A stretch of 64,000 bases of DNA, from positions 11,870-75,869 of the forward strand of contig CAZSIT010000006.1 of NCBI GenBank assembly GCA_964607165.1, read 5' to 3'. The notes beneath the pieces were generated by a model. The model saw nothing but the letters and a program-made list of their open reading frames with translations. It was not told where the DNA came from and made no database searches. Of the stretch, positions 1-42,369 are shown in pieces. Source of the stretch: an uncultured Ignavibacteria bacterium (lineage in GTDB: Bacteria > Zixibacteria > MSB-5A5 > DSPP01). How positions within the stretch are numbered: position 1 is the stretch's first letter; the number at the start of each line of letters is the position of its first letter. A program made the position numbers and the translations under genes.

Positions 1-2540
1 AGCTGGACTATTAGTGGTGGCGGCGGCACCATAATAGGCTCCTCGACCGGCCAATGTGTTACCGTTCAAGCAAGCGGAACCTGCGGAACTTCTTATACCT
101 TAAATTTAACGGTCACCGGCGCCTGCGCCAGCAGCTGCAGCAAAACGGTTCTGGTTAAAGACAACATTAAGCCGACTATTGTCTGTCCGGCCGATATCGT
201 CGCCAGCAACGGCAACTGTTGCGCTAACGTCAGCTTTGCTCCCACCGTTAACGATAATTGCTCGGCAACCTTTGTCTGCACGCCTCCCTCCGGCTTCTGC
301 TTCCCGGTGGGAATGACCACCGTCAAGTGCGTGGCAACGGATGTTTGCGGCAACAAAGATAGCTGCACCTTCAAGATTACGGTCACCGATACGACCAAAC
401 CGACTATCGTCTGTCCGGCTAATATTGTTAAGAACACCGATCCGGGTCTGTGCTGTGCGGCGGCGACTTTTGCGCCCACCACCGGCGACAACTGCCCGGG
501 ACAAACCTTTACTTGTACTCCCCCTTCGGGCACCTGCTTCCCGGTCGGCGTGAATCCGGTAAAGTGTGTGGTGACCGATGCGGCGGGTAACAAGGATAGC
601 TGCAGCTTTACGGTTACGGTTACCGACAATTCCAAACCGACCATTGTCTGCCCGTCCAACATCAGCAAGAGTAACGATCCCGGTCAGTGCTGCGCGGCGG
701 CGACCTTTGCGCCCACCACCGGTGACAACTGCCCCGGAGAGACCTTTAGTTGCACGCCCCCTTCCGGCACCTGCTTCGGCATTGGGACGACTCCGGTCAA
801 GTGCGTGGTGACTGATGCGGCGGGTAACAAGGACAGCTGCACTTTCACGGTGACGGTCAGCGACACCGAGCCGCCTTCCATAGTTTGTCCGGCCGACATC
901 GTGGCCAGCAACGGCGGTTGCTGTGACGTCGTCAACTTTGCACCCACCGTTTCCGACAACTGCCCGGGAGAGACCTTTGCCTGTGTTCCGCCCTCCGGCT
1001 TCTGCTTCCCGGTCGGGATGACCACGGTAACCTGTACGGCCACCGATGCCGCAGGCAATCAAACTCCCTGCAACTTCAAGATTACGGTCACCGATACGTC
1101 CAAACCGACTATCGTCTGCCCGGCTAATATTGTTAAGAACACCGATCCGGGCCTCTGCTGTGCGGTGGCGACCTTTGCACCTACCACCGGCGACAACTGC
1201 CCGGGAGAGACCTTTGTCTGCACGCCTCCTTCCGGCTTCTGCTTCCCAGTCGGCGTGAATCCGGTCAAGTGCGTGGTGACCGATGCGGCGGGTAACAAGG
1301 ACAGCTGCACCTTCACAGTGACGGTCAGCGACAATTCCAAACCGACCATTGTTTGCCCGGCCAACATAACCAAAGGCACCGACCCCGGTCTGTGCTGTGC
1401 CGTGGCGACTTTTGCGCCTACCACCGGCGACAATTGCCCGGGAGAGATTTTTACCTGCACCCCGCCTTCCGGCACCTGCTTCGGCATTGGGACGACTCCG
1501 GTCAAATGCGTGGTGACTGATGCTTCCGGCAACAAGGACAGCTGCACTTTCACGGTGACGGTCAGCGACAACTCCAAACCGACCATTGTTTGCCCGGCCA
1601 ACATTACCAAAGGTACCGACCCCGGTCTCTGCTGCGCGGTGGCGACCTTTGCGCCAACGGTTGGTGATAATTGCCCCAATCCAACCTTCGTTTGCACGCC
1701 GCCTTCCGGCACCTGCTTCAACAAGGGAACGAATACTGTTAAATGTGTGGTGACCGATGCTTCCGGCAACAAAGACAGCTGCACGTTTACGGTAACGGTC
1801 AATGACAATACCAAGCCGACCATCACCTGCCCGGCCAATATCACCAAGGGCACCGACCCCGGTTTGTGCTGTGCGGTGGCGACCTTTGTACCTACGGTTG
1901 GTGACAATTGTCCCGGCCAGACTTTCACCTGCACGCCACCTTCCGGCACCTGCTTTAACGTCGGAACAAACACCGTTAAGTGCGTGGTGACCGACGCCGC
2001 CGGCAACAAGGACAGCTGCACCTTTACCGTAACGGTTACTGACAATACCAAGCCGAACATCGCCTGCCCGGCTAACATCACCAAGGGCACCGACCCCGGT
2101 CTCTGCTGCGCGGTGGCGACCTTTGCGCCAACGGTTGGTGACAATTGTCCCGGCCAGACTTTCACCTGCACGCCGCCTTCGGGAACTTGCTTTGCGATCG
2201 GGACAACCACGGTTAAGTGTGTGGTAACCGACGCCGCAGGCAACAAGGACAGCTGCACCTTCACGGTGACGGTCAATGACAATACCAAGCCAAGCATAGT
2301 TTGCCCGGCCAACATCACCAAAGGCAACGACCCCGGCCAGTGCTGTGCGGTGGCGACCTTTGCGCCGACGGTTGGCGACAACTGCCCTGGCCAGACTTTC
2401 AGCTGTACGCCACCTTCCGGTACCTGCTATCCGCTCGGCGTGAATACGGTCAAGTGCGTGGCAACCGACGCCGCCGGCAATAAAGACAGCTGCACCTTTA
2501 CGGTCACCGTCAACGATACGACCAAGCCCTCCATCGCCTG
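1..2540. repeat. Tandem coding repeat array, period 237 nt (79 aa), at least 11 units, several nearly identical at nucleotide level
   Basis: Recurring nt blocks ...aaaccgaccattgtttgcccggccaacat(c/a)accaaaggcaccgaccccggtctgtgctg... at about 237-nt spacing. The antisense long ORFs (106..2841 and others) are by-products of the repeats. Confidence 0.85.
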
Positions 2541-4563
2541 CCCGCCTGATAAAATAACGCCTCCAAGACAACCCGGAGTCTGTCCGGGCCCGGTGGTGAC
2601 CTATGAAGTACCGGCCACAGACAATTGCCCCGGTCCAATTACTGTAAATTGTATACCTCCATCGGGTTCGGCTTTCCCAGTTGGCATGACTACAGTTAAC
2701 TGCACCGCTACCGATGCCGCTGGCAATCAGAGCTCTTGCAGCTTCAAAGTAACCGTGCCGGCAACAGACCCGACATTCTTTGAATGTAAGGATACCGCCA
2801 GCAGCGCGAGTGTAAACGCCGTGGTGCAGATTCCGATACAAATTACTAATCCAAACCCGGCCTTTATTCTAAGCATCTGCGGCGCCACCCGGAATGGGTC
2901 GCCGGCCGTTCCCACCAATCCGCCGGCCATTCAGAACAACAATACTTTGGTTTGGGCGGTAAATGGGGACACCGGTTTCTGGTGCTTCTGCTTGAAACTT
3001 TCCGACGGATGCGATTCCGGCTTCTGCCAGGCATGCATCCAAGTCAACCCGCAGCAGTGTTTCCGGCTCTGCATTGAGACGGTTCATCCGCGGGTTCTGG
3101 GCGGAGATGTGAATGTATATATCAACAACTTGGTTGAAGCTTTCGACCCGGATGTTTTGCCTTACGGCGGGACCGTGGGCGGCTTTTCCTTCCTGCTCTC
3201 CTACGACTGTTCCTGCCTGCAGTTCATCAGCGCGGCAAAGGGAAGTCTGTTGGTTGAGCAGAGATGGGAGTTCTTCACCTACCGCTTTGGCGCATTGGGC
3301 AATGGCAACTGCGGTTCCGGCTGTCCAACCTGTCTGATTCGGATTGTGGCGATTGCGGACATCAACAACTCCAATATTCATCCGCCGCCTCCGCCGCGCA
3401 AGAACAAGGGACAGTGGGTTTGCTTGAAGTTCCGCACCTCCTCTGACCTGCGCTTGGCCGGGCTCTGCTGCCCGATTAACTGGTGGTGGTTCGATTGCTC
3501 CGACAACACCATCTCCGACTGGAGCGGCAACACGCTCTGGATAGTGGACTCTTTGTATACGCCGGAGGGCAATCCGATTGACTTGGCGACCACCTTCCCG
3601 ACGGTCAATGTAGAGGCCTGCAGCACCCTCACCGGAGGACCGGGAAAGCCGACTCCGAAACCGTGCATCATCTTCTGCAACGGCAAGATTTGCCTGCCGC
3701 CGATAGAGTCTTTGGACGACCGGGGTGATATCAACCTGAACGGGCTTTCCAACGAGATTGCCGATGCGGTCTTGTTTGAAACCTACTTCATCTTTGGAAC
3801 CAGCGTGTTCACCATCAGCGTGCCAGGCCAGACCGCCGCTACCGACATCAACGGCGACGGCCGCCCCTTGACGATAGCCGACCTGGTGGCTTTAACCCGC
3901 ATCATCACCGGTGACGCCAACCCGCTGCCCAAGGCCAATGCCGGCTTGGCTTCGGTTGACTTGAACTGGAGCTCGGACGGCAAGGAGTTGAAGTTTACCA
4001 CTTCCAGCACTTCCGAGATAGGCGGCCTCTTCGTACGCTTTAAATACAGCGGCGACGCCTCCGAACAAAACCTGTCGGCTCTGGCAAACTCTATGAACCT
4101 TAAAGCCAACGTGGCTGAAGGCGAATTAAGAGTATTGATTAACTCCGACATCAAGGGAGCGATGATTCCGGCCGGCAAGGCGACCTTTACGGTGCCGATA
4201 GATGGAGAAGTTGAGTTCGTAGAAGCTCAAGCTTCCAACTATTTTGGCCAGAGCCTGCCGGTGGTGAACAAGGCGACGCCGATACCGACCGCTTTTGGAT
4301 TGAGCCAGAACTATCCCAATCCGTTCAATCCAAAAACCAACTTTGTGCTCGCCTTGCCGGTGGCCAGCCACTACAATGTGACCATCTACAACCTGCTGGG
4401 CGAAGCGGTGCGCACCTTTGAGGGTGATGCTGCAGCCGGCAACAAGGTCATTACCTGGGATGCCACCGACCGCAACGGCAACGCGGTTTCTTCGGGACTT
4501 TACTTCTACAAAGCGGTCGCCGGACAGTTTGTGGCCAAAAAGAAAATGATTTTGATGAGGTAA
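1..4563 (+). CDS. 5'-truncated giant secreted surface protein: at least 12 tandem HYR (hyalin-repeat) domains, Ig-like region, cohesin-like module, dockerin-like Ca-binding module, second beta-sandwich, T9SS C-terminal sorting domain
   Basis: Frame 1 is open from nt 1, with no stop before the listed 307 start. Repeating 79-aa unit CPANI..DPGxCCAxATFAPTxGDNCPGxTFxCTPPSGxCF..VKCVVTDAAGNKDSCTFTVTV matches the HYR consensus. FSFLLSYDCSCLQFISAAKG...CLIRIVAIADINN resembles the cohesin strand 4-5 motif. DINLNGLSNEIADAVLFETYF...DINGDGRPLTIADLVALTRIITG matches dockerin repeats. The C-terminus NYPNPFNPKTNF...YFYKAVAGQFV...KKMILMR is a T9SS CTD. Confidence 0.8.
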   Translation, partial: SWTISGGGGTIIGSSTGQCVTVQASGTCGTSYTLNLTVTGACASSCSKTVLVKDNIKPTIVCPADIVASNGNCCANVSFAPTVNDNCSATFVCTPPSGFCFPVGMTTVKCVATDVCGNKDSCTFKITVTDTTKPTIVCPANIVKNTDPGLCCAAATFAPTTGDNCPGQTFTCTPPSGTCFPVGVNPVKCVVTDAAGNKDSCSFTVTVTDNSKPTIVCPSNISKSNDPGQCCAAATFAPTTGDNCPGETFSCTPPSGTCFGIGTTPVKCVVTDAAGNKDSCTFTVTVSDTEPPSIVCPADIVASNGGCCDVVNFAPTVSDNCPGETFACVPPSGFCFPVGMTTVTCTATDAAGNQTPCNFKITVTDTSKPTIVCPANIVKNTDPGLCCAVATFAPTTGDNCPGETFVCTPPSGFCFPVGVNPVKCVVTDAAGNKDSCTFTVTVSDNSKPTIVCPANITKGTDPGLCCAVATFAPTTGDNCPGEIFTCTPPSGTCFGIGTTPVKCVVTDASGNKDSCTFTVTVSDNSKPTIVCPANITKGTDPGLCCAVATFAPTVGDNCPNPTFVCTPPSGTCFNKGTNTVKCVVTDASGNKDSCTFTVTVNDNTKPTITCPANITKGTDPGLCCAVATFVPTVGDNCPGQTFTCTPPSGTCFNVGTNTVKCVVTDAAGNKDSCTFTVTVTDNTKPNIACPANITKGTDPGLCCAVATFAPTVGDNCPGQTFTCTPPSGTCFAIGTTTVKCVVTDAAGNKDSCTFTVTVNDNTKPSIVCPANITKGNDPGQCCAVATFAPTVGDNCPGQTFSCTPPSGTCYPLGVNTVKCVATDAAGNKDSCTFTVTVNDTTKPSIACPPDKITPPRQPGVCPGPVVTYEVPATDNCPGPITVNCIPPSGSAFPVGMTTVNCTATDAAGNQSSCSFKVTVPATDPTFFECKDTASSASVNAVVQIPIQITNPNPAFILSICGATRNGSPAVPTNPPAIQNNNTLVWAVNGDTGFWCFCLKLSDGCDSGFCQACIQVNPQQCFRLCIETVHPRVLGGDVNVYINNLVEAFDPDVLPYGGTVGGFSFLLSYDCSCLQFISAAKGSLLVEQRWEFFTYRFGALGNGNCGSGCPTCLIRIVAIADINNSNIHPPPPPRKNKGQWVCLKFRTSSDLRLAGLCCPINWWWFDCSDNTISDWSGNTLWIVDSLYTPEGNPIDLATTFPTVNVEACSTLTGGPGKPTPKPCIIFCNGKICLPPIESLDDRGDINLNGLSNEIADAVLFETYFIFGTSVFTISVPGQTAATDINGDGRPLTIADLVALTRIITGDANPLPKANAGLASVDLNWSSDGKELKFTTSSTSEIGGLFVRFKYSGDASEQNLSALANSMNLKANVAEGELRVLINSDIKGAMIPAGKATFTVPIDGEVEFVEAQASNYFGQSLPVVNKATPIPTAFGLSQNYPNPFNPKTNFVLALPVASHYNVTIYNLLGEAVRTFEGDAAAGNKVITWDATDRNGNAVSSGLYFYKAVAGQFVAKKKMILMR

Positions 4564-4704
4564 CTCGATGCGGCATCCGGCCGCTTCTAACAACAACTCC
4601 CGACGAAACTTGTTCCAAAGGGTGGTTTGGGAGGCTCAGGATATAACAGCCCGCCGCAAGGTGGGCTGTTATATTTTTGGAGGTTTTTGCAGAAGAACAA
4701 AAAA

Positions 4705-7683
4705 ATGACATCGAAAGCGTCTTTAATTCTCTTTTCTGCTCTGGTTTGGGTAATTCCTGCCTTCACCCAAGCCGCCATTCCCGACCCAAGAGATTCGGTT
4801 ATCGTCGAGCAGAAAGTCGTGGCTCCGGTTTTTGGCGCTTGCGCTTCTGCGCCGATAAAGGTGCGCGTTTGGGTCACGAACAAAGACAGCCTGGCTAATG
4901 TTACTTTTCCTTTAGAGGAAAAAAGCATTTCCGGCGGTGCTTACGCTATCATATCCCGTCCAGCTAATTGCTCGTCTGCTCGAACCAGTTCGACGGTGTT
5001 TGACTTTCTTTACCCGCCTGGACCCGGGACTGCACGCTTTCCTACCCGGGTCCCCAGTTTCAGTGGTTACCACAGCAACTCGCCAGATACATTTATGTTC
5101 ACAGGCACTTGCGACCCTACAGATGACGATACCAAATTGCCACCTAACTTAACCCGCGCAGCACTGTTGGATATCAAATTTGATAGTGTTACCGGTTTAG
5201 GCCAATTCCAAATCGACTCAACCAAGGTCCTGGGGAACACCTTACAGTTCGTAAGCACGTCGGGGAACGCAATTTTTGTCAACTTCGTCACAGGGATTAT
5301 CGCCAGCTGTGTTCCACATCAGCCCTTTAATAATTGTCAAGGTGCTAGTTCCAGTGTGTTATATGGACGGCCCTTCAATTACGTTTTCGCTTTGGGGGAT
5401 GTGCCAGGGACATATTCAGTAGTCTCCGGCCCAGGAACGATTGATGTCACCGGCTACTATACTTTTGCCGGTCAGTGCCCCCTGGATTTGGGCGGCATTC
5501 CGGTAACGGTTCGGTTTACCAGTAATACCCCACCCGGAGAGTGTGGTAGCGGGTCCGGCGATTGTCAATTCACAATCAAAGTGGTCGACAACCCGCCAGT
5601 CTGTTCACCCAACCAACCAAATATCACCGTTCCTCACGGTACTTTGGCCCAAAACATCATTACCGCTACAGACCCAGACTCGGGAGATGGGACAATAATC
5701 TCTCAATCAAGTGGCCCGGGGGCGGTCGTGGATAATGTGAATGGAACCGCTGACTGGAACTATCAGACTTCCTGCGAGGACGTGGGGCGCTCTCCACAAG
5801 AAGTGAATTTTTTGGTCAGGGATAAATTTGGCTCCTGCAATCCCGGCCCTTCTACCGCCGCCTGTCTTTTCTTTTTGGTTGTTACTAACGCTTCGCCGAG
5901 TATAACCAACTGCCCTTCAGAAACGATTTCTTTGCGGGGCGGTGAGCCGTTTAGTTTGGATTTGAACGCAACCGACACCGACCCGGGTGACAGCGATATA
6001 GATAATCATTTCTTTTTGAAAAGCGGCCCGGCCGGGTTAACCGTTTCACCATCCGGCGTAGTAAATTGGACACCAGATCTCACTCAAACCGATACCTGCG
6101 CGGTCATTGGCGTAAGCGATGCCTGTGGAGCCGCCGACAGCTGTGTAGTCTGCTTCGACGTCGTTTCCGGCCAGAAATTCCGTCTGTGCATTGACGTGGT
6201 TCATCCGCGTTTCCAGGGTGGTGATGTTAACGTTTACATCAACAACCTGGTGGAAGCCTTCGACCCGGACTGCGACACCGCCCACGGCGGCAGCGGCTGT
6301 GTGGGCGGCTTCTCCTTCCTGCTTACCTACGACTGTTCCTGCCTGCAGTTTATCAGCGCGTCCAAGGGACAGTTGTTGATCGACCAGCGCTGGGAGTTCT
6401 TCACCTACCGCTTCGGCGCTTTGGGCAACGGCAACTGCGGTTCCGGCTGTCCAACCTGTCTGATTCGGATTGTGGCGATTGCCGATATCAACAACAGCAA
6501 TATTCATCCGGTACCTTGCCCGCGCCCGAACCAGGGTCAGTGGGTGTGCTTGAAGTTCCGCACCTCCTCTGATTTGCGGTTGGCCGGGCTCTGCTGCCCG
6601 ATTAACTGGTACTGGCTGGATTGCACGGACAACACTGTTTCGGATGCCACCGGCAATTGCCTCTGGATTGCCTGCGCGATTTTGAACACGGACGGGGATA
6701 CCTTACCCCTGCCGACCGAACCGGTCAACGTGTACAACTGCAGATTCAATTCGGGTGGCGAAAACAAGCCGACTCCGAAGCCGTTCATCATCTTCTGCAA
6801 CGGCCAGATTTGTCTGCCGCCTTTGGAGTCCTTGGACGACCGCGGAGACATCAACCTGAACGGTTTGGCCAACGAGATTGCCGACGCGGTCTTGTTTGAA
6901 AGCTACTTCACCTATGGTACCAGCGTGTTTGTAATCAACGTGGCCGGCCAGACCGCCGCTACCGACATCAACAGCGACGGCCGTCCTTTGACGATAGCCG
7001 ACCTGGTGGCTCTGACTCGCATCATCACCGGCGACGCCAACCCGCTGCCCAAAGCCAACGCCGGTGCTGCTTCTGTTGACCTAAACTGGAGTTCAGACGG
7101 CAAGGAGTTGAAGTTTACCACTTCCAGCACTTCCGAGATAGGCGGCCTCTTCGTACGCTTTAAATACAGCGGCGACGCCTCCGAACAAAACCAATCGGCT
7201 TTGGACAATTCTATGAAGCTTAAGGCCGGCGTGGCGGAAGGCGAATTAAGAGTATTGATTAACTCCGATGTCAGGGGAGGTATGATTCCGGCCGGAAAAG
7301 CCACCTTTACTGTGGCGATAGAAGGAGAAGTGGAGTTTGTAGAAGCTCAAGCTTCCAACTATCAAGGCCAGAGCCTGCCGGTGGTAAACAAAAAGGCGGC
7401 TTTGCCCACTTCATTCGCTTTAAGCCAGAACTATCCTAATCCGTTCAATCCGAAGACCAACTTTGTGCTCTCCTTGCCGGTGGCCAGCCGTTACAAGGTA
7501 ACCATTTACAACCTGCTGGGCGAAGCGGTGCGCACCTTCGAAGGTGATGCTGCGGCCGGCAACAAGGTCATTACCTGGGATGCCACCGACCGCAACGGAA
7601 ACACGGTTTCTTCGGGAATTTACTTCTACAAGGCGGTAGCCGGACAGTTTGTCGACAAGAAGAAAATGATTTTGATGAGGTAA
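4705..7683 (+). CDS. Secreted T9SS cargo protein, paralog of the upstream gene: signal peptide, Ig-like/cadherin-like N-terminal domains, then the same cohesin-like, dockerin-like, beta-sandwich and T9SS CTD cassette
   Basis: ATG at 4705 gives MTSKASLILFSALVWVIPAFTQA, a signal peptide. The ORF-track start at 4627 is probably upstream of the true start. The C-terminal 500 aa are nearly identical to the C-terminus of the first protein. The T9SS CTD NYPNPFNPKTNFVLSLP...KKMILMR is present. Confidence 0.8.
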   Translation: MTSKASLILFSALVWVIPAFTQAAIPDPRDSVIVEQKVVAPVFGACASAPIKVRVWVTNKDSLANVTFPLEEKSISGGAYAIISRPANCSSARTSSTVFDFLYPPGPGTARFPTRVPSFSGYHSNSPDTFMFTGTCDPTDDDTKLPPNLTRAALLDIKFDSVTGLGQFQIDSTKVLGNTLQFVSTSGNAIFVNFVTGIIASCVPHQPFNNCQGASSSVLYGRPFNYVFALGDVPGTYSVVSGPGTIDVTGYYTFAGQCPLDLGGIPVTVRFTSNTPPGECGSGSGDCQFTIKVVDNPPVCSPNQPNITVPHGTLAQNIITATDPDSGDGTIISQSSGPGAVVDNVNGTADWNYQTSCEDVGRSPQEVNFLVRDKFGSCNPGPSTAACLFFLVVTNASPSITNCPSETISLRGGEPFSLDLNATDTDPGDSDIDNHFFLKSGPAGLTVSPSGVVNWTPDLTQTDTCAVIGVSDACGAADSCVVCFDVVSGQKFRLCIDVVHPRFQGGDVNVYINNLVEAFDPDCDTAHGGSGCVGGFSFLLTYDCSCLQFISASKGQLLIDQRWEFFTYRFGALGNGNCGSGCPTCLIRIVAIADINNSNIHPVPCPRPNQGQWVCLKFRTSSDLRLAGLCCPINWYWLDCTDNTVSDATGNCLWIACAILNTDGDTLPLPTEPVNVYNCRFNSGGENKPTPKPFIIFCNGQICLPPLESLDDRGDINLNGLANEIADAVLFESYFTYGTSVFVINVAGQTAATDINSDGRPLTIADLVALTRIITGDANPLPKANAGAASVDLNWSSDGKELKFTTSSTSEIGGLFVRFKYSGDASEQNQSALDNSMKLKAGVAEGELRVLINSDVRGGMIPAGKATFTVAIEGEVEFVEAQASNYQGQSLPVVNKKAALPTSFALSQNYPNPFNPKTNFVLSLPVASRYKVTIYNLLGEAVRTFEGDAAAGNKVITWDATDRNGNTVSSGIYFYKAVAGQFVDKKKMILMR
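6178..7683. repeat. About 1.5-kb duplicated 3' gene cassette (partner copy 3061..4563), about 85-90% nt identity with embedded 50-115 nt stretches of 100% identity
   Basis: Identical runs such as aactgcggttccggctgtccaacctgtctgattcggattgtggcgattgc and ggcaaggagttgaagtttaccacttccagcacttccgagataggcggcctcttcgtacgctttaaatacagcggcgacgcctccgaacaaaacc occur in both copies. Confidence 0.9.
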
Positions 7684-7814
7684 CATTAGGAATAGTATGA
7701 GGTTAGAAAATATTCTGTTTAAAGCCGCTTTTTTATTGACATTTAATTGGGCAGGCAGTATACTTAGGGTGGCATCCAGAGGGTGGGAGGCCGGTAAGGA
7801 AGTTGGAGGTTGAT

Positions 7815-9212
7815 ATGAAATTGTCTTATCTTCGCCAAACCGCCCTAAAAATCGCCAAAAAAATCTCATTCTTAATTTTTGCTATCCTTTTGCCTGCTTT
7901 GGCTTCCGCCCAGCCACCCCCATCGCTGACCGATTCGCTGATTCTCGACTGGTGGATATTCGTTCCTGCCGGTCAAACGACCGTCTCGGTCCAAATTTCT
8001 TTGACCAATTCCGTGCCGATTTCCGGCATAACCGGACGAATGGTTTTTGACAACGGTATTTTATCCCCGATAATCGATTCCATTTCCGGCTTTGTTTCGG
8101 CAGAACGGGTTGGGCGAGGGATGGCACTCTCAAATTTCGCTGCCAGGTCACCCCAGCCGGGTGTAATTACTTTCCTTATGCTCACCAATTTTTTCCCAAT
8201 AGAGAAAATCGAGCCGGGCAGTGGCCCCGTCTGCCGGATTAATTTCAACGTCCTCACCGCCAGCGATACCACTACCTGCGTGTATTTTGAAAATGATCCC
8301 GATCCGATTGGCATCAGAAACCAGCTTTCTGACGCCAACGGCTATATCGTTATCCCCTCCCTCCAACCGGGAAGTTTGGTAATCGGGATAGGTAGTCCGA
8401 CCGGCAGTTGCTTTCCAGTCGAACCAATTGACAACACCGGCGATTTGAACTTGAATGGATTGCCATACGAAATCGGCGATTTTGTAACGTTTGAAAATTA
8501 CTTTATATATGGGGATGCAGTTTTTAACATAAACCCAACCGAGCAAGCTCTTGCTTCCGACGTTAACCGGGACGGCCTACTGCTGCGCGTTGCCGACCTG
8601 GTCTTTTTGGAACGAGTCATTCTCGGCGAGATTAATCCCCTCCCGGCACAAACTATTGCATCGGTTTCGGACACGGCTCAATTCGAAATAGTCCAAACCT
8701 CCGACCAATTGGTTCTTTCCTACGCCTCCCCAATCGATTTGAGCGGCTTTTTCCTGCGCCTGACGTTCCTTGGCACGGCTGGAGACCCAATCCGCCTGGA
8801 CTCGTCTCCCAATATGGATTTTGGCAGCCAAATATATCCCGGCGAACTGCGCTTCCTTTTGGTTTCTTCCCTTCAAACCCCTTTGGGGAAAATTCCCGCG
8901 GGCAGCGGGCCTTTGCTTTCCATCCCGTTTAACGGCAATTTAAGAGGCGTTGAAATACAAGCTTCGACCACGGAAGGGGAGGAAGTGGCAACCACCGGCT
9001 CCTATCCCATCGACAGCCGCGGGGACCTGAATGCCGACGGGCTTCTTACCCCCTCCGACGTCGTATCGGAGCTTAATTGTGCACTTGTATCCGCTTTGAA
9101 TTGTCCTCTTTCCCTGACGGATTTGACCTGTGATGGAATGCTCACCACCTCTGATGTAGTCCTTATCTTGAACGCGACATTCTTAGGAGAAACTCTACCT
9201 CAATGTCCTTGA
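7815..9212 (+). CDS. Secreted adaptor-like protein: signal peptide, cohesin-like module, internal dockerin-like module, second beta-sandwich, C-terminal double dockerin repeat (no T9SS CTD)
   Basis: GGAGG lies upstream of the ATG at 7815. MKLSYLRQTALKIAKKISFLIFAILLPALASA is a signal peptide. TTVSVQISLTNSVPISGITGRMVFDNGILSPI...GPVCRINFNVL is cohesin-like. DLNLNGLPYEIGDFVTFENYF...DVNRDGLLLRVADLVFLERVILG is homologous to the dockerin module of the two upstream genes. The C-terminus is DLNADGLLTPSDVVSELNCALVS...LTCDGMLTTSDVVLILNATFLGETLPQCP. Confidence 0.7.
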   Translation: MKLSYLRQTALKIAKKISFLIFAILLPALASAQPPPSLTDSLILDWWIFVPAGQTTVSVQISLTNSVPISGITGRMVFDNGILSPIIDSISGFVSAERVGRGMALSNFAARSPQPGVITFLMLTNFFPIEKIEPGSGPVCRINFNVLTASDTTTCVYFENDPDPIGIRNQLSDANGYIVIPSLQPGSLVIGIGSPTGSCFPVEPIDNTGDLNLNGLPYEIGDFVTFENYFIYGDAVFNINPTEQALASDVNRDGLLLRVADLVFLERVILGEINPLPAQTIASVSDTAQFEIVQTSDQLVLSYASPIDLSGFFLRLTFLGTAGDPIRLDSSPNMDFGSQIYPGELRFLLVSSLQTPLGKIPAGSGPLLSIPFNGNLRGVEIQASTTEGEEVATTGSYPIDSRGDLNADGLLTPSDVVSELNCALVSALNCPLSLTDLTCDGMLTTSDVVLILNATFLGETLPQCP

Positions 9213-9767: not shown

Positions 9768-11963
9768 ATGGAAAGTCTATTCTCGCCCAAGGCGGGAATT
9801 TTTTTTCGCCTTCGGGAAACAGTCAAACTCCTCGTCGCCCTATTGGTGGGGACATCTGTTCCTTTATGGGCGGAATCTAACCTTAAAATCTCCGGTCAAA
9901 TTTTTGATCGTAACACTGGGCAGCCCTTAGGCAGTGTTACCGTCAGAATCATTGAAAGCGGAAATCAAACAAGCACCGATATGCAAGGGAGGTTTACCTT
10001 TTACGATTTGCCAGAAGGAAAGTATCGCCTTGTTTCTAATCCTCCCTCCTATCGTGCTGAAACACTCACTGTAAAAGTTTCCACCGCCGGAACAGCTGAA
10101 ATAGCGTTTTGGCTCGAACCGGAGCCAATAACCGGCCCACCCACAATAGTGACGGCTGACATTACAACCGAGGCAGCTTTGGAACCGAGCTTAGTTTTCA
10201 CGCGCTCGGATATGGAGAAATCGAAAAATCTTTCGATTGCACAATTTCTTTCACATCAGCCCGGGTTGGACATAAAAACGGGCGGAGTTTACGGCTCGAC
10301 GGAAGAGGTGACCATTCGAGGCGGCGCCGCCAATCAGACGCTGGTGCTTTTCGATGGCCGGCCTTTAAACTCCAATCTGGGCGGAACGGCCGATTTAAGC
10401 TTCGTCAGACTGGCTAATCTCGAAAGAATCGAGGTGTACAAAGGAAGCCAAACGGCGCGTTTTGGGCCGGATGCAGTCGCCGGTGTTGTTATTTTAACTT
10501 CCAGAAAGCCGAATCCCCAAGAGCATTTGACTCCACAAATTTCCTATGAAAAAGGAAGTTTTGGATACCAATCAACAAACTTTGAATCGAATCTTGCTTT
10601 CGTACCAAACGCATCCGCCAACATCTTTTATCAAAATCTTTCTAACCGAGGCGATTTTACTTATGCAGATAAAAACGGTGATTATGAGAGGGTGAACAGC
10701 TACGTTTGGACCAACCGGGCAAATGGAAAATTAAGCTATGGAAATTTTGAAACCGCTTTTTTCTGGGCTAAAGCCCGGCGCGGGCTTCCGGGAGCGCTGC
10801 TCCAGCTTACGCCAAACGCCCAAGAAAAAGATGAACGATTTGGAATAACCTTAAACCGGAAGCTGTATTCAAACAGGGGGTGGTTTTTTGAGCCTTCAGC
10901 GAGCTGGGATAAACTTACCCAAAGCTTCAAATTACCTGATGGATTTGTAAAAACTGACACTCGTTATAAAACTGAAAAAAGAAAGCTGGAGACGGGTGCG
11001 GGAAAACGTTTGACAAACCAAAAGTATCAAATCAGTTTTGATTTTCTCGAAAGCTCTTTAAAAGGAGAGGATTTTATCCGACCCAGTCAAAGCCTGGGAA
11101 AGACCATTCGTCGTTCGGGTGGCCTTTCCGCGGCCTTCGACCGGCAAGTGCCGTTCAAAGGCCATTTGTCGGCCAGCGCCTCGGGCGCGTCGAGAATGGA
11201 TTGGACCGACTTCACAAAGCCGGCTTACTCTCCCCTTCTTTCGGCCGCTTTGAATTATGACAAGAAAATCAAAACGAGAGTTTTTGGCTCCTGGGGTAAA
11301 AGCTTCCGGCTGCCGACTTTAGACGCGCTATTCTGGAAAGAGGATGTTTTTGCCGCCGGCAACCCGGCCCTTCTTCCCGAGCGCGCAGAAAGCCGGGAAA
11401 CGGGTTATCGAATTACTTTCCCAATCCTTGGAAAATTGAACTGGGAACAAAATTTCTTTCATAACGACCTGAAGAATCTAATTATCTGGCAAAGACGGTT
11501 TGACGGGAAGTTCATCCCTCAAAACATTTCCAAGGCCAAAATTTTTGGCCGGGAGGAAAAGGCGCTCTGGCAGCTCTCCAAAATTCTTGAACTGGAATTC
11601 AACCATACCCAAACCGAGCCAATAAACGAGGAGGATTTTGTTCTGCATCAAGGAAAACAATTGGTGTTTCGACCGCGACATATTTACAATGCGCGTATTG
11701 CCGCCAGCTACAAAATTGCCACTTTAAATCTAACTGGCCGTTGGGTAAGCAAGCGATTCACCCGGGCTGAAAACACAAAATATTTGCCACCTTATGAAAC
11801 CTACGACGCCTTCTTTGCATTAGCTCCAAAACTCCGGAAATTCAACTGGAACTTTTCTTTAGCCATCGAAAACTTTACAGGCAGACAGTATGAAATTTTA
11901 GAACGTTACCCGGTGCCGTGGCGCAGTTTCAAATTTTCGCTGGAAATCAAATGGAGGGATTAA
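9768..11963 (+). CDS. btuB: TonB-dependent outer-membrane receptor (BtuB-like cobalamin receptor) with N-terminal carboxypeptidase-regulatory-like domain
   Basis: AAGGAG RBS. Signal peptide, CarbopepD_reg-like N-terminus (ISGQIFDRNTGQPLGSVTVRI...GKYRL), plug/TonB-box region (TIVTADI...), 731 aa, C-terminal aromatic residue. A cobalamin riboswitch lies directly upstream. Confidence 0.75.
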   Translation: MESLFSPKAGIFFRLRETVKLLVALLVGTSVPLWAESNLKISGQIFDRNTGQPLGSVTVRIIESGNQTSTDMQGRFTFYDLPEGKYRLVSNPPSYRAETLTVKVSTAGTAEIAFWLEPEPITGPPTIVTADITTEAALEPSLVFTRSDMEKSKNLSIAQFLSHQPGLDIKTGGVYGSTEEVTIRGGAANQTLVLFDGRPLNSNLGGTADLSFVRLANLERIEVYKGSQTARFGPDAVAGVVILTSRKPNPQEHLTPQISYEKGSFGYQSTNFESNLAFVPNASANIFYQNLSNRGDFTYADKNGDYERVNSYVWTNRANGKLSYGNFETAFFWAKARRGLPGALLQLTPNAQEKDERFGITLNRKLYSNRGWFFEPSASWDKLTQSFKLPDGFVKTDTRYKTEKRKLETGAGKRLTNQKYQISFDFLESSLKGEDFIRPSQSLGKTIRRSGGLSAAFDRQVPFKGHLSASASGASRMDWTDFTKPAYSPLLSAALNYDKKIKTRVFGSWGKSFRLPTLDALFWKEDVFAAGNPALLPERAESRETGYRITFPILGKLNWEQNFFHNDLKNLIIWQRRFDGKFIPQNISKAKIFGREEKALWQLSKILELEFNHTQTEPINEEDFVLHQGKQLVFRPRHIYNARIAASYKIATLNLTGRWVSKRFTRAENTKYLPPYETYDAFFALAPKLRKFNWNFSLAIENFTGRQYEILERYPVPWRSFKFSLEIKWRD

Positions 11964-11967
11964 AACC

Positions 11968-13167
11968 GTGAGAAGATTTTTATCATTGTTTCTATTTATC
12001 TTCGTGTTCTTCTGCTATCACCTAATCTCTGCTCAAAGCGCTCGATTGTGGGTGGTGAATGGTTTGGCAGAAACCGCCAGCCGCGTCATTTTAGATAGCG
12101 GAAATGTATCTAACCATATAATTACGCTCGGTTTGATACCCAACCAAATAGTTTCGGAAGGCAATTTTCTCTTGGCCGTAAACTCCGGCTCCAATAATAT
12201 TCAGATTTTCAACCGCCACACGCTGGCCGAAATCGGAACCGTCGAGCTTGGGGCTAACCGAAATCCCTGGAATTTGGTTATGGCCGATTCGACAATCGGC
12301 TATGTGACTAATCTGGTAACCGGAACGGTGTCTAAGTTCAACCGGTTGAGTAGAACAGTACTGAAAGAGTTTTCGGCGGGTCAATCTCCAGAAGGTATTA
12401 CTTATGCCAAAGGGAAAATTTGGGTTTGCAATACGGCATTTAATCCCAACAATTTTTCATACGGCCAAGGCGAAATAGCGGTAATTGACCCGGTAGCCGA
12501 TTCTGTCGTGAAGAAAATAAACGTGGGAACCAATCCACAGGCCATTAAGCAGGCGCCGGATGGAAAACTCATCGCTGTCTGTACGGGAGACTTCGGTTCG
12601 GTCAGCGGTACGCTCTATGTTATTGACCCAATTACGGAAACCGTAACGGATAGCATTCTGACCGGAGGCACCCCCTCCACCGCTGCGGTCACCCACACCA
12701 ACATCGCCTATCTGCCGGCGGGCGGTTTTGTGGGCAGCGGTCTGCTGTTCAAGGTGAACCTGAATACAAAAACGGTTGAACGCGGCCCGGGAAATCCAAT
12801 TTTGGTGGGAACGGGAGCGACGGATGCCATCTACGATATTGACAGCAATTATGTTTATGTAGCCTGTTTTTCGGACGGAACGGTAAGAAAAATAAACTCC
12901 GCCGACTCGGTGGTAACCAGTTTTTTGGCAGGCGATGGCCCGGTTTCACTGGATATCGCCTATCCTTTTCCGCTGGGAGACTTGAATGGAGATGGCCTGT
13001 CAACCTCCGCCGATGCCGTGATTTTGCTCAACTGCGTCTTTTTGGGATGCGCGCCGCCCCCCCGAAATTCCCAAGCCGATGCCAACCGGGACGGCCTTTG
13101 GACCTCCGCCGACGTGGTGTGCGAACTAAATCACGTTTTTCTGGGAAGCCGATTGCCCTGCCGTTGA
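11968..13167 (+). CDS. Secreted YVTN-family 7-bladed beta-propeller protein with C-terminal double dockerin repeat; candidate BtuG-like surface B12-capture protein
   Basis: Signal peptide. Contains the IGYVTN motif and repeated 40-residue blades. C-terminus DLNGDGLSTSADAVILLNCVFLG...DANRDGLWTSADVVCELNHVFLGSRLPCR. The gene starts 5 nt after btuB, inside the riboswitch operon. Confidence 0.6.
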   Translation: MRRFLSLFLFIFVFFCYHLISAQSARLWVVNGLAETASRVILDSGNVSNHIITLGLIPNQIVSEGNFLLAVNSGSNNIQIFNRHTLAEIGTVELGANRNPWNLVMADSTIGYVTNLVTGTVSKFNRLSRTVLKEFSAGQSPEGITYAKGKIWVCNTAFNPNNFSYGQGEIAVIDPVADSVVKKINVGTNPQAIKQAPDGKLIAVCTGDFGSVSGTLYVIDPITETVTDSILTGGTPSTAAVTHTNIAYLPAGGFVGSGLLFKVNLNTKTVERGPGNPILVGTGATDAIYDIDSNYVYVACFSDGTVRKINSADSVVTSFLAGDGPVSLDIAYPFPLGDLNGDGLSTSADAVILLNCVFLGCAPPPRNSQADANRDGLWTSADVVCELNHVFLGSRLPCR

Positions 13168-14119: not shown

Positions 14120-14827
14120 TCAGTTGCGAACCGAGGTTGAATCACCGGTTTTAGGTGAACCCAGAAATTTCCAATCTGCAAAAGCCGGCATCGTATCTTT
14201 GAAGTTGCTTTCCAGGAAAAACTCGGAGGAGAAAAGAACGGCGACAAACAAATGATTATTCTTTCGAAATACGGTGACAATTTCCGCCCGGAATTCCGAA
14301 CCGGTAATCGGGCCGGCTTTTTGTTCGGAGAAATACTCGGTCATATTCCGTAAAAGGGTCAGCTGCACGCCCGGCTGCCCCGCCACGCTAACCCGGCTGC
14401 GCTTAATTTCCTTGTCGCTGGGGCGCCAGTCCAAAACCTTCAAATATTCTCCTTTGCCTTTCCAGCTCGTTTCCCCAAAAAGACGGTCCAAGAATTGATC
14501 GGGGGAAAAAGAAAGCGTGTCGGCCAGAATCAAAAACCTTGGGCGGGTTCCCGCATTGGAACGTTCGTTGGAAAACCTTGGATTAATTTGAACGTCGCTT
14601 TTTTCCATTGCCACTCGAATTAAGGAAGGCTCATCTTTCACGCGTGCCTTCCATGTTTTCGGCACCGAGGTGGAATAACCAATAAGCGAGTCGCTGAAGG
14701 TATTCTTCTCCAGAACGCCGGTTTTAATCTTATCCTTTGAGAAAGTAATTGGGCTGAAAGCAAACAGGCCAAGCAGGCCCATCAAGAAAATAGACGTTGA
14801 ACGCCGCATACACTCCCCTTTGCTCAA
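14120..14827 (-). CDS. Secreted hypothetical protein (signal peptide), co-operonic with the M48 peptidase
   Basis: MRRSTSIFLMGLLGLFAFSPITFS is a signal peptide. The true start is probably 14809. I recognise no domain. Confidence 0.5.
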   Translation of the reverse strand: MSKGECMRRSTSIFLMGLLGLFAFSPITFSKDKIKTGVLEKNTFSDSLIGYSTSVPKTWKARVKDEPSLIRVAMEKSDVQINPRFSNERSNAGTRPRFLILADTLSFSPDQFLDRLFGETSWKGKGEYLKVLDWRPSDKEIKRSRVSVAGQPGVQLTLLRNMTEYFSEQKAGPITGSEFRAEIVTVFRKNNHLFVAVLFSSEFFLESNFKDTMPAFADWKFLGSPKTGDSTSVRN

Positions 14828-15636
14828 GGTAATCGCTTCTTCATTTGTGAATAGGTTTCTTTCCCGGATTTTCCACCGGCTGGCAATTTTTTGATTTCCA
14901 TTTCCAATTTAGCTATTCGCTCTTGGGTCTGCGGATGGGTGGCGGTCAGCTTTTCAAAAGTCGAACGCTCTCCTTTTTCACCGGCGCCCAGTTTGTTAAA
15001 CATCCGGAGCGTCCCTTCCGGATTATACCCGGCTCGCTGCATATAAACGAGCCCAAAACGGTCAGCCTCCAGCTCGTGGCTGCGGCTGTAACCGGTGAGA
15101 GCGATGCCTAAAACAACGTTTAGCGCCTGCTGCGCGGCCGGGCTTTTGTCGCCAAAAGCCAATGCTTCCACGGCGGAAATGCCGACCACCGGCTGCATCT
15201 GACGGACGGCATGGCGGCCATCCACATGCCCGATTTCGTGGCCCAAAACGGCCGCCAGCTCGGCTTCATCATCCATCAATTTTAAAAGGCCTGTGTATAT
15301 GAAAAGCGGCCCGCCCGGAAGCGCAAAGGCGTTGATTTCTTTTGAATCAAGAACCGTGAAACTATAGCGGACGTCTTTTCTTTCCGAGAACTGTGCCAAA
15401 GATTGGCCGATTGCGTCAACATAATTTTGCCAGGCGCTGTCGGCCAATACTTTGGACTGTGATAAGACCTGTTGTTGGGCCTGTTTGCCCATTGAGGTTT
15501 CCGTGCCGCTTCCAATAAAGACCAAACTTTTCTTGCCCCCCGGCCCGGTTGTGGCGCAAGAAAGAGAAATCAAAGCTATCGCATTGAAAAAAACGGAAAG
15601 CCGCTGGCAGCTTACGCTGGGTAAGTAAGCCTTCAT
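14824..15636 (-). CDS. M48-family Zn metallopeptidase (YcaL/BepA-like, periplasmic)
   Basis: HEIGHVDGRH HExxH motif, signal peptide, 270 aa. Confidence 0.75.
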   Translation of the reverse strand: MKAYLPSVSCQRLSVFFNAIALISLSCATTGPGGKKSLVFIGSGTETSMGKQAQQQVLSQSKVLADSAWQNYVDAIGQSLAQFSERKDVRYSFTVLDSKEINAFALPGGPLFIYTGLLKLMDDEAELAAVLGHEIGHVDGRHAVRQMQPVVGISAVEALAFGDKSPAAQQALNVVLGIALTGYSRSHELEADRFGLVYMQRAGYNPEGTLRMFNKLGAGEKGERSTFEKLTATHPQTQERIAKLEMEIKKLPAGGKSGKETYSQMKKRLP

Positions 15637-15671
15637 TCTTATTTTAAGATATAGTTTTTTATCGAGCGGTC

Positions 15672-15702
15672 AAATAAAAAAGCCCCCGCCTCGGCGGGGG
15701 CT
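15672..15702 (-). terminator. Rho-independent terminator for the GH57 operon
   Basis: On the minus strand, agcccccgcc-gagg-cgggggct followed by tttttatttg. Confidence 0.65.
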
Positions 15703-15810
15703 TGTCCTCAAAAAAGGGTCCTATTTAACTTCCTCGACAGCTTTAACGGCAATAGCCATACTGTCGCCAAAGCTATGCACGGTACCGGTAACCCTAAGTA
15801 GCTTAAAAAA

Positions 15811-16158
15811 CTACAGCTTAATCTTTTCGGCCAAATCTCCCAAAAAAGGAACTTTCCAATCACGGCCCTGGAGCACTTGCAGGACGCCGTAAAACGACGC
15901 CAGCAGAGCCAAAATCAAAACAAATGCCCAAAAATGCTGGGAGATAAAAGGCAAATAAAAAATTAAAGCCAGCATCTCCACCATAAAAAGGACCAGCCCC
16001 TGTTTGCCGTGGCGCAGGGCAAAACTATTATGCCGCATCTTTAAAAGGGGAACGAAACACATAAAAGGGATGTAGGCTAAAAGCGCCGCCGCTTTCCCCT
16101 CTTCTATTTCCTGCGCTTCGGATAAGTTCTCTTTTTTTATGAGCTCTTCAGTACCCAC
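15811..16158 (-). CDS. Small membrane protein (DUF4870-like)
   Basis: Two to three TM helices. Abuts the GH57 stop codon. Confidence 0.45.
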   Translation of the reverse strand: MGTEELIKKENLSEAQEIEEGKAAALLAYIPFMCFVPLLKMRHNSFALRHGKQGLVLFMVEMLALIFYLPFISQHFWAFVLILALLASFYGVLQVLQGRDWKVPFLGDLAEKIKL

Positions 16159-37856: not shown

Positions 37857-38118
37857 GAAAACTTAGAAACTCTCCATTTGACAGAGCGGAAGAACACTCG
37901 TAACTTAAAGCTTTAATATTTTTGTTTGGTTTTAGAGATTAGCAATTCTATGCAAGCGCTTTCAATGGGATGATTCCCACACTCAAAACCGGGTGATAAC
38001 AAAAAGGCTGACAAACAGTTACTGCTCTAATTTTCTGGTAGTCTTCGGGCACAAAGGTTGCGTGGTTAAAGCACGGGAAAAGCCCCGCAAGCCTGGGGCC
38101 GAAAAAAGGAGAAAACGG

Positions 38119-42014: not shown

Positions 42015-42369
42015 GTCGAACCGCCAAACTCCTATTTTGACCGGCATCTTTTCAATCACGGGGCTTAGTTAATCAAACCCCGTGCCCTTATGCCTGAATT
42101 TGGCAACTATCTAACCCTTTGATTTCTAAGGGGTTACAAACTCGACTTTAGGGTCAGCCGTGTATGTCGGAAAACTTTTCCAAAAAGGGGCGGAAAAAAG
42201 GGGCTTTTTCACAAGCAAGTATGGGAGTTACCCTATAGCAAAAAACAAGATTTTTGCATTTTGAAATCAGTTGAAAAAATGCATAAACAGAATCTTTGTT
42301 TCCCTGTTGCAAGCTAAACAAAAAATTGTGGGTTGATTTTTGAAGGTAAAAGGACGAGATTTTCTGTCG

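Follow-up and report, generated by a model that had tools for sequence, protein, structure and literature searches.

Two neighbouring genes of an uncultured Zixibacteria-like organism, designated A and B here, begin with entirely different domains and end in a closely similar stretch of 1.5 kb. The question raised by this locus is whether the shared C-terminal half, hereafter the cassette, was copied once and left to diverge or has been exchanged repeatedly between the two genes, and how the different N-terminal halves, the passengers, came to be mounted on it. The original prediction was recent, patchy gene conversion in a modular system. The window, i.e., the whole 64,000-nt stretch of DNA analysed, contains the following features at this locus.

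1..4563, + strand: gene A, at least 1520 aa by translation, its left end lying outside the window; 11 HYR repeats at about 1-2560, an Ig-like linker at 2560-3060, then the cassette
3061..4563, + strand: cassette A, 500 aa plus stop codon, with boundaries from repeat and blastn comparisons
4640..4683, + strand: terminator-like hairpin 3' of gene A, with a 16-bp stem, a GCAA loop and a T run
4702..7683, + strand: gene B, 993 aa by translation from the ATG at 4702; a signal-peptide-like N-terminus at 4702-4773, an Ig-like passenger to 6177, then the cassette
6178..7683, + strand: cassette B, 501 aa plus stop codon
7815..9212, + strand: gene C, a third, distant relative of A and B recognized by tblastn and blastp; a cohesin-like N-terminus, a dockerin-like module plus sandwich, and a second dockerin-like module at the C-terminus

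The passengers of A and B are unrelated, as had been claimed: the best blastp match between them has E = 0.021 and nucleotide similarity is nil. Pfam searches bear out their assignment as an HYR array and Ig-like domains, respectively. In gene A, HYR (PF02494) matches 11 stretches above the cut-off (409.8 bits, E = 2e-125), and the repeats have a period of 237 nt in the DNA. Gene B matches Big_9 (Ig-like), FlgD_ig and Por_Secre_tail; its N-terminus, MTSKASLILFSALVWVIPAFTQAA, looks like a signal peptide from the translation, and the passenger shares 41-48% identity with the passengers of P0003, P0007 and P0011.

The cassettes are direct repeats, 3.1 kb apart. Similarity begins at 3059-3061 and 6176-6178 and stops one base past the stop codons (4564 and 7684); the flanking sequence is unrelated and homology breaks off sharply both at 3061/6178 and at the stop codons, so that the boundaries first proposed, 3061-4563 and 6178-7683, are exact. 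Over 1494 aligned nt the two copies are 83.6% identical, with 245 mismatches and 15 gap columns. By blastn, identity amounts to 83.7% between 3061-3509 and 6178-6635 and to 88.2% in the 3' block of about 920 nt (3646-4564 against 6766-7684); the anticipated 85-90% is slightly too high for the cassette overall. Four stretches stand out in the alignment.

3304..3356, + strand: second identical tract, 53 nt, equal to 6430-6482
3505..3700, + strand: variable, unconverted patch (segment S2 plus edges), with its B copy at about 6631-6820
3976..4072, + strand: identical tract of 97 nt, the youngest conversion tract, equal to 7096-7192
4435-4478: identical tract of 44 nt, equal to 7555-7598

Several further exact tracts of 20-32 nt are present. 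Identical tracts of 50-115 nt had been expected; those of 97 and 53 nt fall in that range, the former being the longest in the cassette alignment, and no exact tract of 115 nt was found there. Uniform divergence, the outcome that had been named as speaking against conversion, is not seen either, the identity tracts standing beside a variable patch (135-200 nt; core 3510-3645) of only ~53% nucleotide identity. Without an outgroup, the 97-nt tract reaches nominal significance only: for the unchanged run of 34 codons, the permutation p ranges from 0.006 to 0.024 depending on the segments included.

A much sharper view was obtained with an outgroup. The gene-A cassette of an orthologous syntenic locus in a close relative (L100, cassette A_L100) served this purpose; it is the sole close outgroup and lies on a metagenome contig. 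The neighbouring genes of L100 are 86-95% identical to those of the window at the amino acid level, and its gene A ortholog is 88% identical. In the three-way comparison, A and B agree against the ortholog at 100 sites and B and the ortholog agree against A at 62 (binomial p = 0.0035), and these discordant sites are strongly clustered (runs test, z = -6.24). Fifteen consecutive sites at 3978-4068 unite A and B of the window against A_L100 (permutation p = 0.0003), and a second segment, 3324-3384, reaches p = 0.047. Within the 97-nt tract the paralogs are identical, whereas A is separated from its ortholog by 15 differences; the ortholog differs at 8 synonymous and 4 non-synonymous codons. As these ortholog differences are mostly synonymous, constraint at the nucleotide level cannot explain the identity, and the tract was therefore exchanged after the split of the two organisms. 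In a sliding comparison with A_L100, cassette A resembles cassette B more than it resembles its ortholog in three patches only: 3261-3385, which contains the 53-nt tract, 3948-4097 and 4323-4522. Faster evolution in the L100 lineage could inflate the excess of sites shared by A and B, yet it would not cluster them. GC-biased gene conversion was also considered and rejected: in the 97-nt tract, 7 of the 8 synonymous differences are GC-ending in the window and AT-ending in L100, but over all sites where A equals B the count is 44 against 37, which gives no signal.

Divergence at synonymous sites varies accordingly along the cassette, with dS from 0 to above 1 inside one gene. For about 80% of the cassette, dS between A and B is 0.41 against 0.49 between A and its ortholog, and in three old, near-saturated patches (3135-3173, 3505-3700 and 4243-4302) it is about 1.1, values which are descriptive only as the young and old patches were delimited after inspection of the data. 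Patchiness is therefore borne out by the clustered sites and the discordant segments, and the word recent holds only in a relative sense: most of the cassette, with dS of about 0.4, is roughly as old as the split from the nearest relative, and the 97-nt tract alone is truly young.

The same relative provides direct evidence of reshuffling, which had been put forward as a possibility. In L100, the slot of gene B is occupied by a different gene, P0001, between flanks 93.5-96% identical to those of the window, and a more distant syntenic locus, L101, holds a P0001-type gene in the same slot; evidently, whole-gene replacement has also happened here. The left edge of the replaced segment is the hairpin at 4640..4683, which has a folding energy of -26.9 kcal/mol (RNAfold) and is kept in L100 with an altered loop; it was found by intergenic comparison and folding, the promoter and terminator scan having missed the terminator of gene A. 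Downstream, gene C has an ortholog in L100 (87% identical). Its dockerin-like and sandwich part shares 37% amino acid identity with cassette residues 214-399 (Pfam Dockerin_1, E = 0.058); it has no sorting domain and no trace of conversion with A or B. A metagenome scan with the B passenger returned one true B-type locus only, L083 (3.6 kb), and tandem cassette genes elsewhere in Zixibacteria genomes are only 37-53% identical at the amino acid level. The cassette scan of species-representative genomes was swamped by the generic sorting-domain motif, and its best relative, at 43% identity, is useless for dating.

Gene B is thus a newcomer in this slot, and it might have arrived from another strain or locus with a cassette that was already A-like, its similarity to A being inherited from the donor. 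This possibility we consider rather unlikely, although it is the strongest of the alternatives. Over the cassette as a whole, B is indeed the odd one out against the two A copies at 150 sites, compared with the 100 and 62 given above. Nevertheless, B is nearer to the resident A (83.7% nucleotide identity) than to A_L100 (81.1%), and in the 97-nt tract it agrees with the resident A at 15 positions that are different in the ortholog, which requires exchange after arrival whatever the origin of B. Import accounts for where gene B came from and not for the patches in its cassette.

The ancestry of the individual segments was examined in neighbour-joining trees. S1, S3, S4 and S5 each place A and B together as sisters (bootstrap 100, 99, 99 and 75, respectively); S2, the variable patch, where dS is 1.3 and dN 0.61, does not. 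In S2, A shares 14 informative sites with P0013 and only 1 with B, and the discordance is highly significant (Fisher p = 2e-11 and 5e-8); the state of A is shared with P0013 and that of B with P0014. Sharing of states with foreign proteins indicates separate ancestry rather than fast divergence. These results bear upon the simplest alternative, in which a single duplication and fusion gave B its cassette from A and the copies then diverged, uneven constraint and codon bias producing the tracts and patches. The whole-cassette average of dS, 0.50 between A and B against 0.45 for the ortholog, is what one event near the split could give; dN and dS climb together in the variable patches, and the high GC3 leaves fewer effective synonymous sites. 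A single event is nonetheless improbable in our estimation, since it leaves unexplained the clustering of the site patterns, the run of 15 sites at which the ortholog differs mostly synonymously, the foreign affinities of both S2 copies and the wide range of dS within one gene.

An assembly or binning artefact, in which a short-read assembler crossed between the repeated cassettes or mixed strains, is very improbable: the uncultured source makes a metagenome assembly probable, and de Bruijn graphs can be led astray by repeats of 84-88% identity that contain exact runs as long as 97 nt, but gene B is joined on its left (~4673-4701) within unique sequence beside a conserved terminator, the locus is collinear with L100 on either side at 93.5-96% identity, both reading frames are unbroken across 1.5 kb, and a path switch within an identical run swaps the downstream parts without creating identity and would give one switch rather than many small patches.

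Repeated conversion between the two cassettes, together with whole-gene replacement, is therefore the reading that we prefer, and its direction is suggested by codon composition. GC3 steps up at 6178, from 0.52 in the B passenger to 0.70 in cassette B; gene A has a GC3 of 0.70 in both genomes, and P0001 has 0.48. Transfer mainly from A to B would follow, because the cassette of B has the unusual codon composition of A, composition being the only guide to direction. A point against it is that S2 of B is GC3-rich too, though its sequence is not A-like. Further cassette paralogs may lie outside the window and may be the true donors, for instance of S2 of B and of an A-specific cluster at 3485-3501. 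Seven proteins with B-homologous passengers carry another type of S4-S5, and the S4-S5 of B nests among cassettes of the HYR type (bootstrap 87 and 79). The sorting-domain copy of B is 91% identical in nucleotides to the copy of A and only 77% to that of P0001. We also considered whether the old patches of B are relics of a displaced P0001-type gene and rejected the idea: B shares few states with P0001 (7402-7422 and one codon near the stop), these few are also the consensus states of the family, and S2 of B shows no likeness to P0001.

What, then, is being exchanged? The AlphaFold model of cassette A has a mean pLDDT of 86, and the cassette divides into four parts.

3061..3696, + strand: cohesin-fold domain, residues 1-212 of the cassette; B copy at about 6178-6816
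3703..3915, + strand: dockerin-like module, residues 215-285; B copy at 6823-7035
3949..4275, + strand: second, small cohesin-like beta-sandwich, residues 297-405; B copy at 7069-7395
4297..4563 including the stop codon, + strand: T9SS type A C-terminal sorting domain of gene A; in gene B, 7417..7683 including the stop codon, + strand

Foldseek comparison of residues 1-212 with the PDB retrieves many type I and type II cohesins (E 1e-10 to 1e-6, TM 0.66-0.76, target-normalised), and the domain is accordingly assigned to the cohesin fold, which is defined as a nine-stranded jelly-roll. The Pfam search of the same residues gives no match to any family, Cohesin (PF00963) included, even at E <= 5. 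At E <= 1e-3, Cohesin is recognized in 16 of 56 homologs, the best match having E = 1.9e-9, and profile comparison with PDB cohesins yields E = 0.006. The dockerin-like module has two DxNxxG loop-helix segments, with the motifs DINLNGLSNEIAD and DINGDGRPLTIAD about 40 aa apart, and three helices are predicted in the structure model. Canonical dockerin loops have a D..D spacing of 12; here the spacing is 13 residues. Dockerin_1 (PF00404) scores 14.6 bits (E = 0.039), below the cut-off of 22.9; 2 of 56 homologs pass at 1e-3, and the PDB dockerin profile matches with E = 0.07. For the model of residues 212-413 (pLDDT 86, pTM 0.84), the best Foldseek matches of the small sandwich are again cohesins, 2xdh, 2jh2 and 1g1k (E 3e-5 to 5e-5, TM ~0.5). 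Taking a sorting domain to be a match of ~70-100 aa at the very C-terminus above the curated cut-off, both proteins have one: TIGR04183 covers the last ~80 residues with 38.8 bits (E = 6.6e-10) in A and 38.6 bits (E = 8e-10) in B, against a cut-off of 23. Por_Secre_tail (PF18962) is borderline (25.3-27.3 bits against 27) and FlgD_ig scores 34-35 bits against 27. The sorting domain suggests that both proteins would be secreted and anchored by the T9SS; machinery genes (PorK/L/M/N, Sov/SprA, PorU/V) are absent among the 12 other ORFs of the window that were scanned.

The combination of varied passengers with one conserved cassette, as had been supposed from this pair, extends to more than 800 proteins, mostly labelled as Zixibacteria, in which HYR, He_PIG, Big_9, Cadherin_4, PKD, Y_Y_Y or an extra cohesin precede the cassette. 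The top-ranked papers of a literature search for Zixibacteria with cohesin or dockerin do not mention Zixibacteria.

Taken together, a probable course of events can be outlined. HYR (A) and Ig-like (B) passengers are mounted on a common module of 500 aa, in the order cohesin-fold domain, dockerin-like module, small cohesin-like sandwich and, at the end, T9SS type A sorting domain. The cohesin-like and dockerin-like modules would serve in assembly between proteins. The cassettes would exchange sequence by non-reciprocal homologous recombination in tracts of tens to a few hundred bases, and successive events of differing age would have left the mosaic, i.e., one difference-free tract of 97 nt, about 80% at or above the similarity of the orthologs, and three old patches that conversion never reached or that were filled again from elsewhere. 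Gene B has displaced another cassette-bearing gene, which occupies the slot in related genomes, so that short conversion and whole-gene replacement both act at this locus.

A more far-reaching proposal, which we regard as doubtful, is that Zixibacteria build a self-assembling surface lattice from the cassette, anchored through the T9SS and corresponding to a cellulosome without enzymes. Conversion between co-resident paralogs would then keep the cohesin and dockerin interfaces mutually compatible, the conversion-resistant patch 3505-3700 in the cohesin-fold domain would carry the paralog-specific choice of partner, and gene C, with its cohesin-like part, two dockerin-like modules and no anchor, would encode a soluble cross-linker.

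Apart from that proposal, a conserved module of 500 aa has been defined in more than 800 uncharacterised proteins, and it is a candidate protein-assembly device. Short conversion tracts and whole-gene replacement are found together at one conserved locus, upstream of a TonB-dependent receptor. Moreover, with cassettes of this sort present, orthology assignment, tree building and assembly can all go astray for these surface-protein families.

The nearest parallel among T9SS cargo is the rgpA, kgp and hagA genes of Porphyromonas gingivalis, which share repeated C-terminal adhesin modules, show combinatorial domain modularity and belong to a setting in which recombination among surface-protein alleles generates diversity (PMC5266723). 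As here, differing N-terminal domains precede common C-terminal modules with a T9SS sorting domain at their end, and the shared regions there contain repeats that are identical within and between genes (PMC5266723). The modules differ, being cleaved-adhesin and DUF2436 in P. gingivalis and cohesin-like and dockerin-like here. Those repeats are identical enough to break assemblies, whereas the cassettes are 84% identical and form a fine mosaic; the P. gingivalis genes are dispersed in a Bacteroidota pathogen and those of the window lie in tandem in an uncultured Zixibacteria-like organism.

In Cloacimonadota, cellulosome-like proteins with a T9SS C-terminal domain have been inferred (PMC8542988). 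That case resembles the present one in the FCB-group host and in the C-terminal sorting domain proposed for attachment to the cell surface (PMC8542988). With cohesin-dockerin systems in general, the cassette has in common its cohesin-fold domains (Foldseek TM ~0.7) and what looks like a duplicated dockerin-like loop-helix module. Unlike in cellulosome-type systems, the cohesin-like and dockerin-like modules adjoin in one polypeptide, throughout the more than 800 proteins; the passengers are Ig-like domains or HYR arrays instead of enzymes, a scaffoldin with tandem cohesins is absent, and the sequences of the window fall below the Pfam cut-offs for cohesin and dockerin.

Concerted evolution by gene conversion is well known from tufA/tufB in Salmonella and from the opa and pil families in Neisseria. 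The cassettes of A and B share with these the non-reciprocal homologous recombination between paralogs of one genome, paralogs that are closer than orthologs, and mosaic tracts that break off sharply where homology ends. They differ in that exchange is confined to the C-terminal halves of the genes, the N-terminal halves being unrelated, in that the tracts are short and homogenisation is incomplete (dS ~0.4), and in showing no sign of programmed or phase-variable switching. The pair illustrates, with good documentation, an evolutionary process that is already known, and does not constitute a new kind of system; its value lies in a clean, quantified case of concerted evolution confined to the shared, putatively anchoring half of modular and probably secreted proteins, in a phylum without a cultured model.

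Gene A and gene B lie in tandem and share a C-terminal module of about 500 aa (the cassette), while gene C is a third, distant relative downstream.

Before base 1 to 4563, + strand: gene A, long open reading frame in tandem with gene B
4640-4683: terminator hairpin of gene A, just before the replaced segment discussed below
4702-7683, + strand: gene B, long open reading frame, open from 4627
7815-9212: gene C, cohesin-like at the N-terminus, with a dockerin-like module and sandwich that match the cassette at 37% identity, and dockerin-like a second time at the C-terminus

Both blastn and a search for repeats picked out 3061-4563 and 6178-7683 as the sole strongly similar stretches. The similarity starts abruptly at 3059-3061 and 6176-6178 and ends one base past both stop codons, and the DNA flanking both cassettes is unrelated. 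The original prediction had these limits and the similarity right, but its 85-90% identity was too high: codon-guided alignment gave 83.6% over 1494 nt (88% in the 3' 920 nt, 84% in the 5' 450 nt and ~53% in the patch between). The exact tracts, put at 50-115 nt, do exist, the longest being 97, 53 and 44 nt rather than 115. The N-terminal passengers, 11 HYR repeats in gene A and Big_9-type Ig-like domains in gene B, are unrelated in sequence, as had been claimed (best blastp E = 0.021). The HYR array (1-2560) has a 237-nt period and 10-11 copies of 67-83% mutual identity; a 911-aa antisense ORF in this region (106-2841, - strand) is most likely spurious.

An AlphaFold model of the cassette, with 56 homologs as input and a mean pLDDT of 86, shows four parts.

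aa 1-212: cohesin fold (PDB cohesins, TM 0.66-0.76, E down to 1e-10)
aa 215-285: dockerin-like module, three helices around two DxNxxG loops (Pfam only E = 0.039)
aa 297-405: small sandwich, best matches again cohesins (TM ~0.5)
aa 413-500: T9SS type A sorting domain (TIGR04183, 38.8 bits, cut-off 23)

The roles known for such folds suggest that A and B are surface proteins exported by the T9SS, with a shared tail that would serve in export and anchoring and probably in protein-protein assembly. Gene C is without the sorting domain. Genes containing a C-like part adjoin genes with B-like passengers at two further loci (L081 and L083) too, so the two gene types tend to travel together.

Divergence between the two cassettes, whose uniformity would have spoken against conversion, is very uneven, with identity tracts. 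Overall dS is 0.50 and dN 0.11 (Nei-Gojobori), and dS reaches 0.95 in cassette codons 1-50, 0.33-0.48 over most of the cassette, 1.3 (dN 0.61) in the variable patch at aa 151-192 and 0 in the 97-nt tract. Among codons for the same amino acid, the longest run without synonymous change is 34 codons (permutation p = 0.006-0.024, depending on the segments included). From A and B alone this run is a suggestive hint of conversion rather than proof, because codon bias or constraint could contribute.

A contig of a close relative (L100) carries the orthologous locus and supplies an outgroup.

Gene 1: gene-A ortholog, 88% aa identity, truncated by the contig end
Gene 2: P0001, in the slot where the window has gene B
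Gene 3: gene-C ortholog, 87% identity
Gene 4: TonB-dependent receptor, 86% identity, equal length
Gene 5: 399-aa protein, 95% identity, followed by further genes in the order of the window

The cassettes of A, B and the gene-A ortholog were compared base by base, giving nucleotide identities of 87.1% for A/ortholog, 83.7% for A/B and 81.1% for B/ortholog. A and B agree against the ortholog at 100 sites, A and the ortholog against B at 150, and B and the ortholog against A at 62; without exchange, the first and last counts should be equal (binomial p = 0.0035). The discordant site patterns are strongly clustered along the cassette (runs test z = -6.24). Within the 97-nt tract, 15 consecutive sites have A equal to B and the ortholog different (permutation p = 0.0003). 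Of the codons at which the ortholog differs there, 8 are synonymous and 4 non-synonymous; the tract is therefore not frozen by constraint, and A and B exchanged it later than the split of the two organisms. In sliding windows, A is nearer to B than to its ortholog at 3261-3385, 3948-4097 and 4323-4522, and A and B are much more distant at 3086-3210, 3461-3700 and 4223-4347. A and B differ by a dS of 0.41 over ~80% of the cassette, versus 0.49 for A/ortholog, and by one of 1.10 within the old patches; these values are descriptive only, because the patches were delimited after seeing the data. The pattern is the one to be expected if short conversion events took place repeatedly and at different times, and on the strength of this outgroup test the predicted patchy conversion proves essentially right. 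At 3485-3501, B equals the ortholog against A at six consecutive sites (WWFDCS in A, YWLDCT in the others; permutation p = 0.023); this A-specific cluster may be a short tract that gene A received from a third paralog lying beyond the window.

With the 500-aa cassette as query, >800 proteins were matched, the best at 53-62% identity, and nearly all those with taxon labels come from Zixibacteria metagenome-assembled genomes. Their N-terminal parts carry HYR, He_PIG, Big_9, Cadherin_4, PKD, Y_Y_Y or an extra cohesin module, which bears out the expectation of varied passengers on one cassette. Homologs of the gene B passenger occur in seven proteins (P0003, P0007, P0009, P0010, P0011, P0012 and the L083 gene), with 41-48% identity in the three aligned (P0003, P0007, P0011), and the C-terminal halves of all seven belong to a distinct type. 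When the cassette was divided into successive segments S1-S5, neighbour-joining placed A and B as sisters in S1, S3, S4 and S5 (bootstrap 100, 99, 99 and 75). In S4 and S5 the pair is nested in HYR-type cassettes (bootstrap 87 and 79), apart from the proteins with B-like passengers. In S2 (the patch at aa 151-192) they are not sisters: A has 14 informative sites in common with P0013 versus 1 with B, against 12 versus 114 elsewhere (Fisher p = 2e-11), and the same test for B with P0014 gave p = 5e-8. These trees and site-sharing tests indicate that the cassette of gene B is a mosaic of several ancestries. P0013, a partial protein on a 1.3-kb metagenome contig, is closest known to gene A in S2 and S3 (71-76% identity), its S4 groups with cassettes of B-like-passenger proteins, and its sorting domain represents still another type. 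Its cassette is thus also mosaic, and therefore segment exchange seems common across the family.

The slot of gene B (window 4673-7683, L100 3808-6136, and 3040-5274 in L101, a more distant syntenic locus) has different occupants in close relatives. By blastn, window and L100 are collinear to ~4680 and again from 7414. The intergenic flanks of the slot (93.5% and 95.8% identity) are better conserved than the adjacent coding DNA (85-89%). In its sorting domain, B matches A at 91% identity but P0001 at only 77%. The gap in collinearity and this A-like sorting domain show that the stretch from just past the hairpin to the stop codon of B was replaced relative to L100. P0001 has an extra cohesin module and a cassette just 53% identical. 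Since a P0001-type gene (P0004) fills the slot in L101 as well, ahead of a C-like gene and a TonB-dependent receptor, the P0001 type is probably ancestral in the slot and gene B a newcomer. Where cassette genes stand in tandem in L100, L007 and L009, they share only 37-53% aa identity, and the 83% identity of A and B is thus specific to the window lineage.

GC3 stays at ~0.70 along the whole of gene A, in the window and in L100 alike; it is 0.52 in the passenger of gene B, 0.48 in P0001 and 0.48-0.66 (mostly <0.60) in other window genes. In the B cassette it is 0.70, with the step falling exactly at 6178; the step is much smaller or absent in the L083 gene (0.72 to 0.80) and P0012 (0.82 to 0.83), which favours an A-like donor. 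The unconverted patch of gene B (6631-6820) has a GC3 of 0.78-0.80, rich like the A-like parts, with a sequence that is not A-like.

Downstream lie a TonB-dependent receptor that contains CarboxypepD_reg, the 399-aa protein (both within 9768-13167), and ORFs corresponding in relatives to an M48 peptidase (14824-15636) and a GH57 enzyme (16159-18267). L100 and L101 keep this order (9768-13167, 14824-18267), which places the surface-protein genes at the start of a conserved gene block. Farther on are another T9SS type A sorting-domain protein, with BACON_2 (37993-40017; its sorting domain has 41% identity to the cassette's), and a 987-aa fused restriction-modification enzyme of Eco57I/MmeI type with N6_Mtase and TaqI_C domains (42340-45303).

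Gene conversion leading to concerted evolution of paralogs is a textbook process; compared with it, the fine-grained mosaic is particular to A and B, as is the adjacency of cohesin-like and dockerin-like modules in one presumably anchored polypeptide. Proteins with cohesin and dockerin domains and a T9SS C-terminal domain were inferred in Cloacimonadota (PMC8542988). The nearest parallel is rgpA, kgp and hagA of Porphyromonas gingivalis, T9SS cargo genes in which differing N-terminal domains are joined to common C-terminal adhesin repeats in a combinatorial modularity (PMC5266723).
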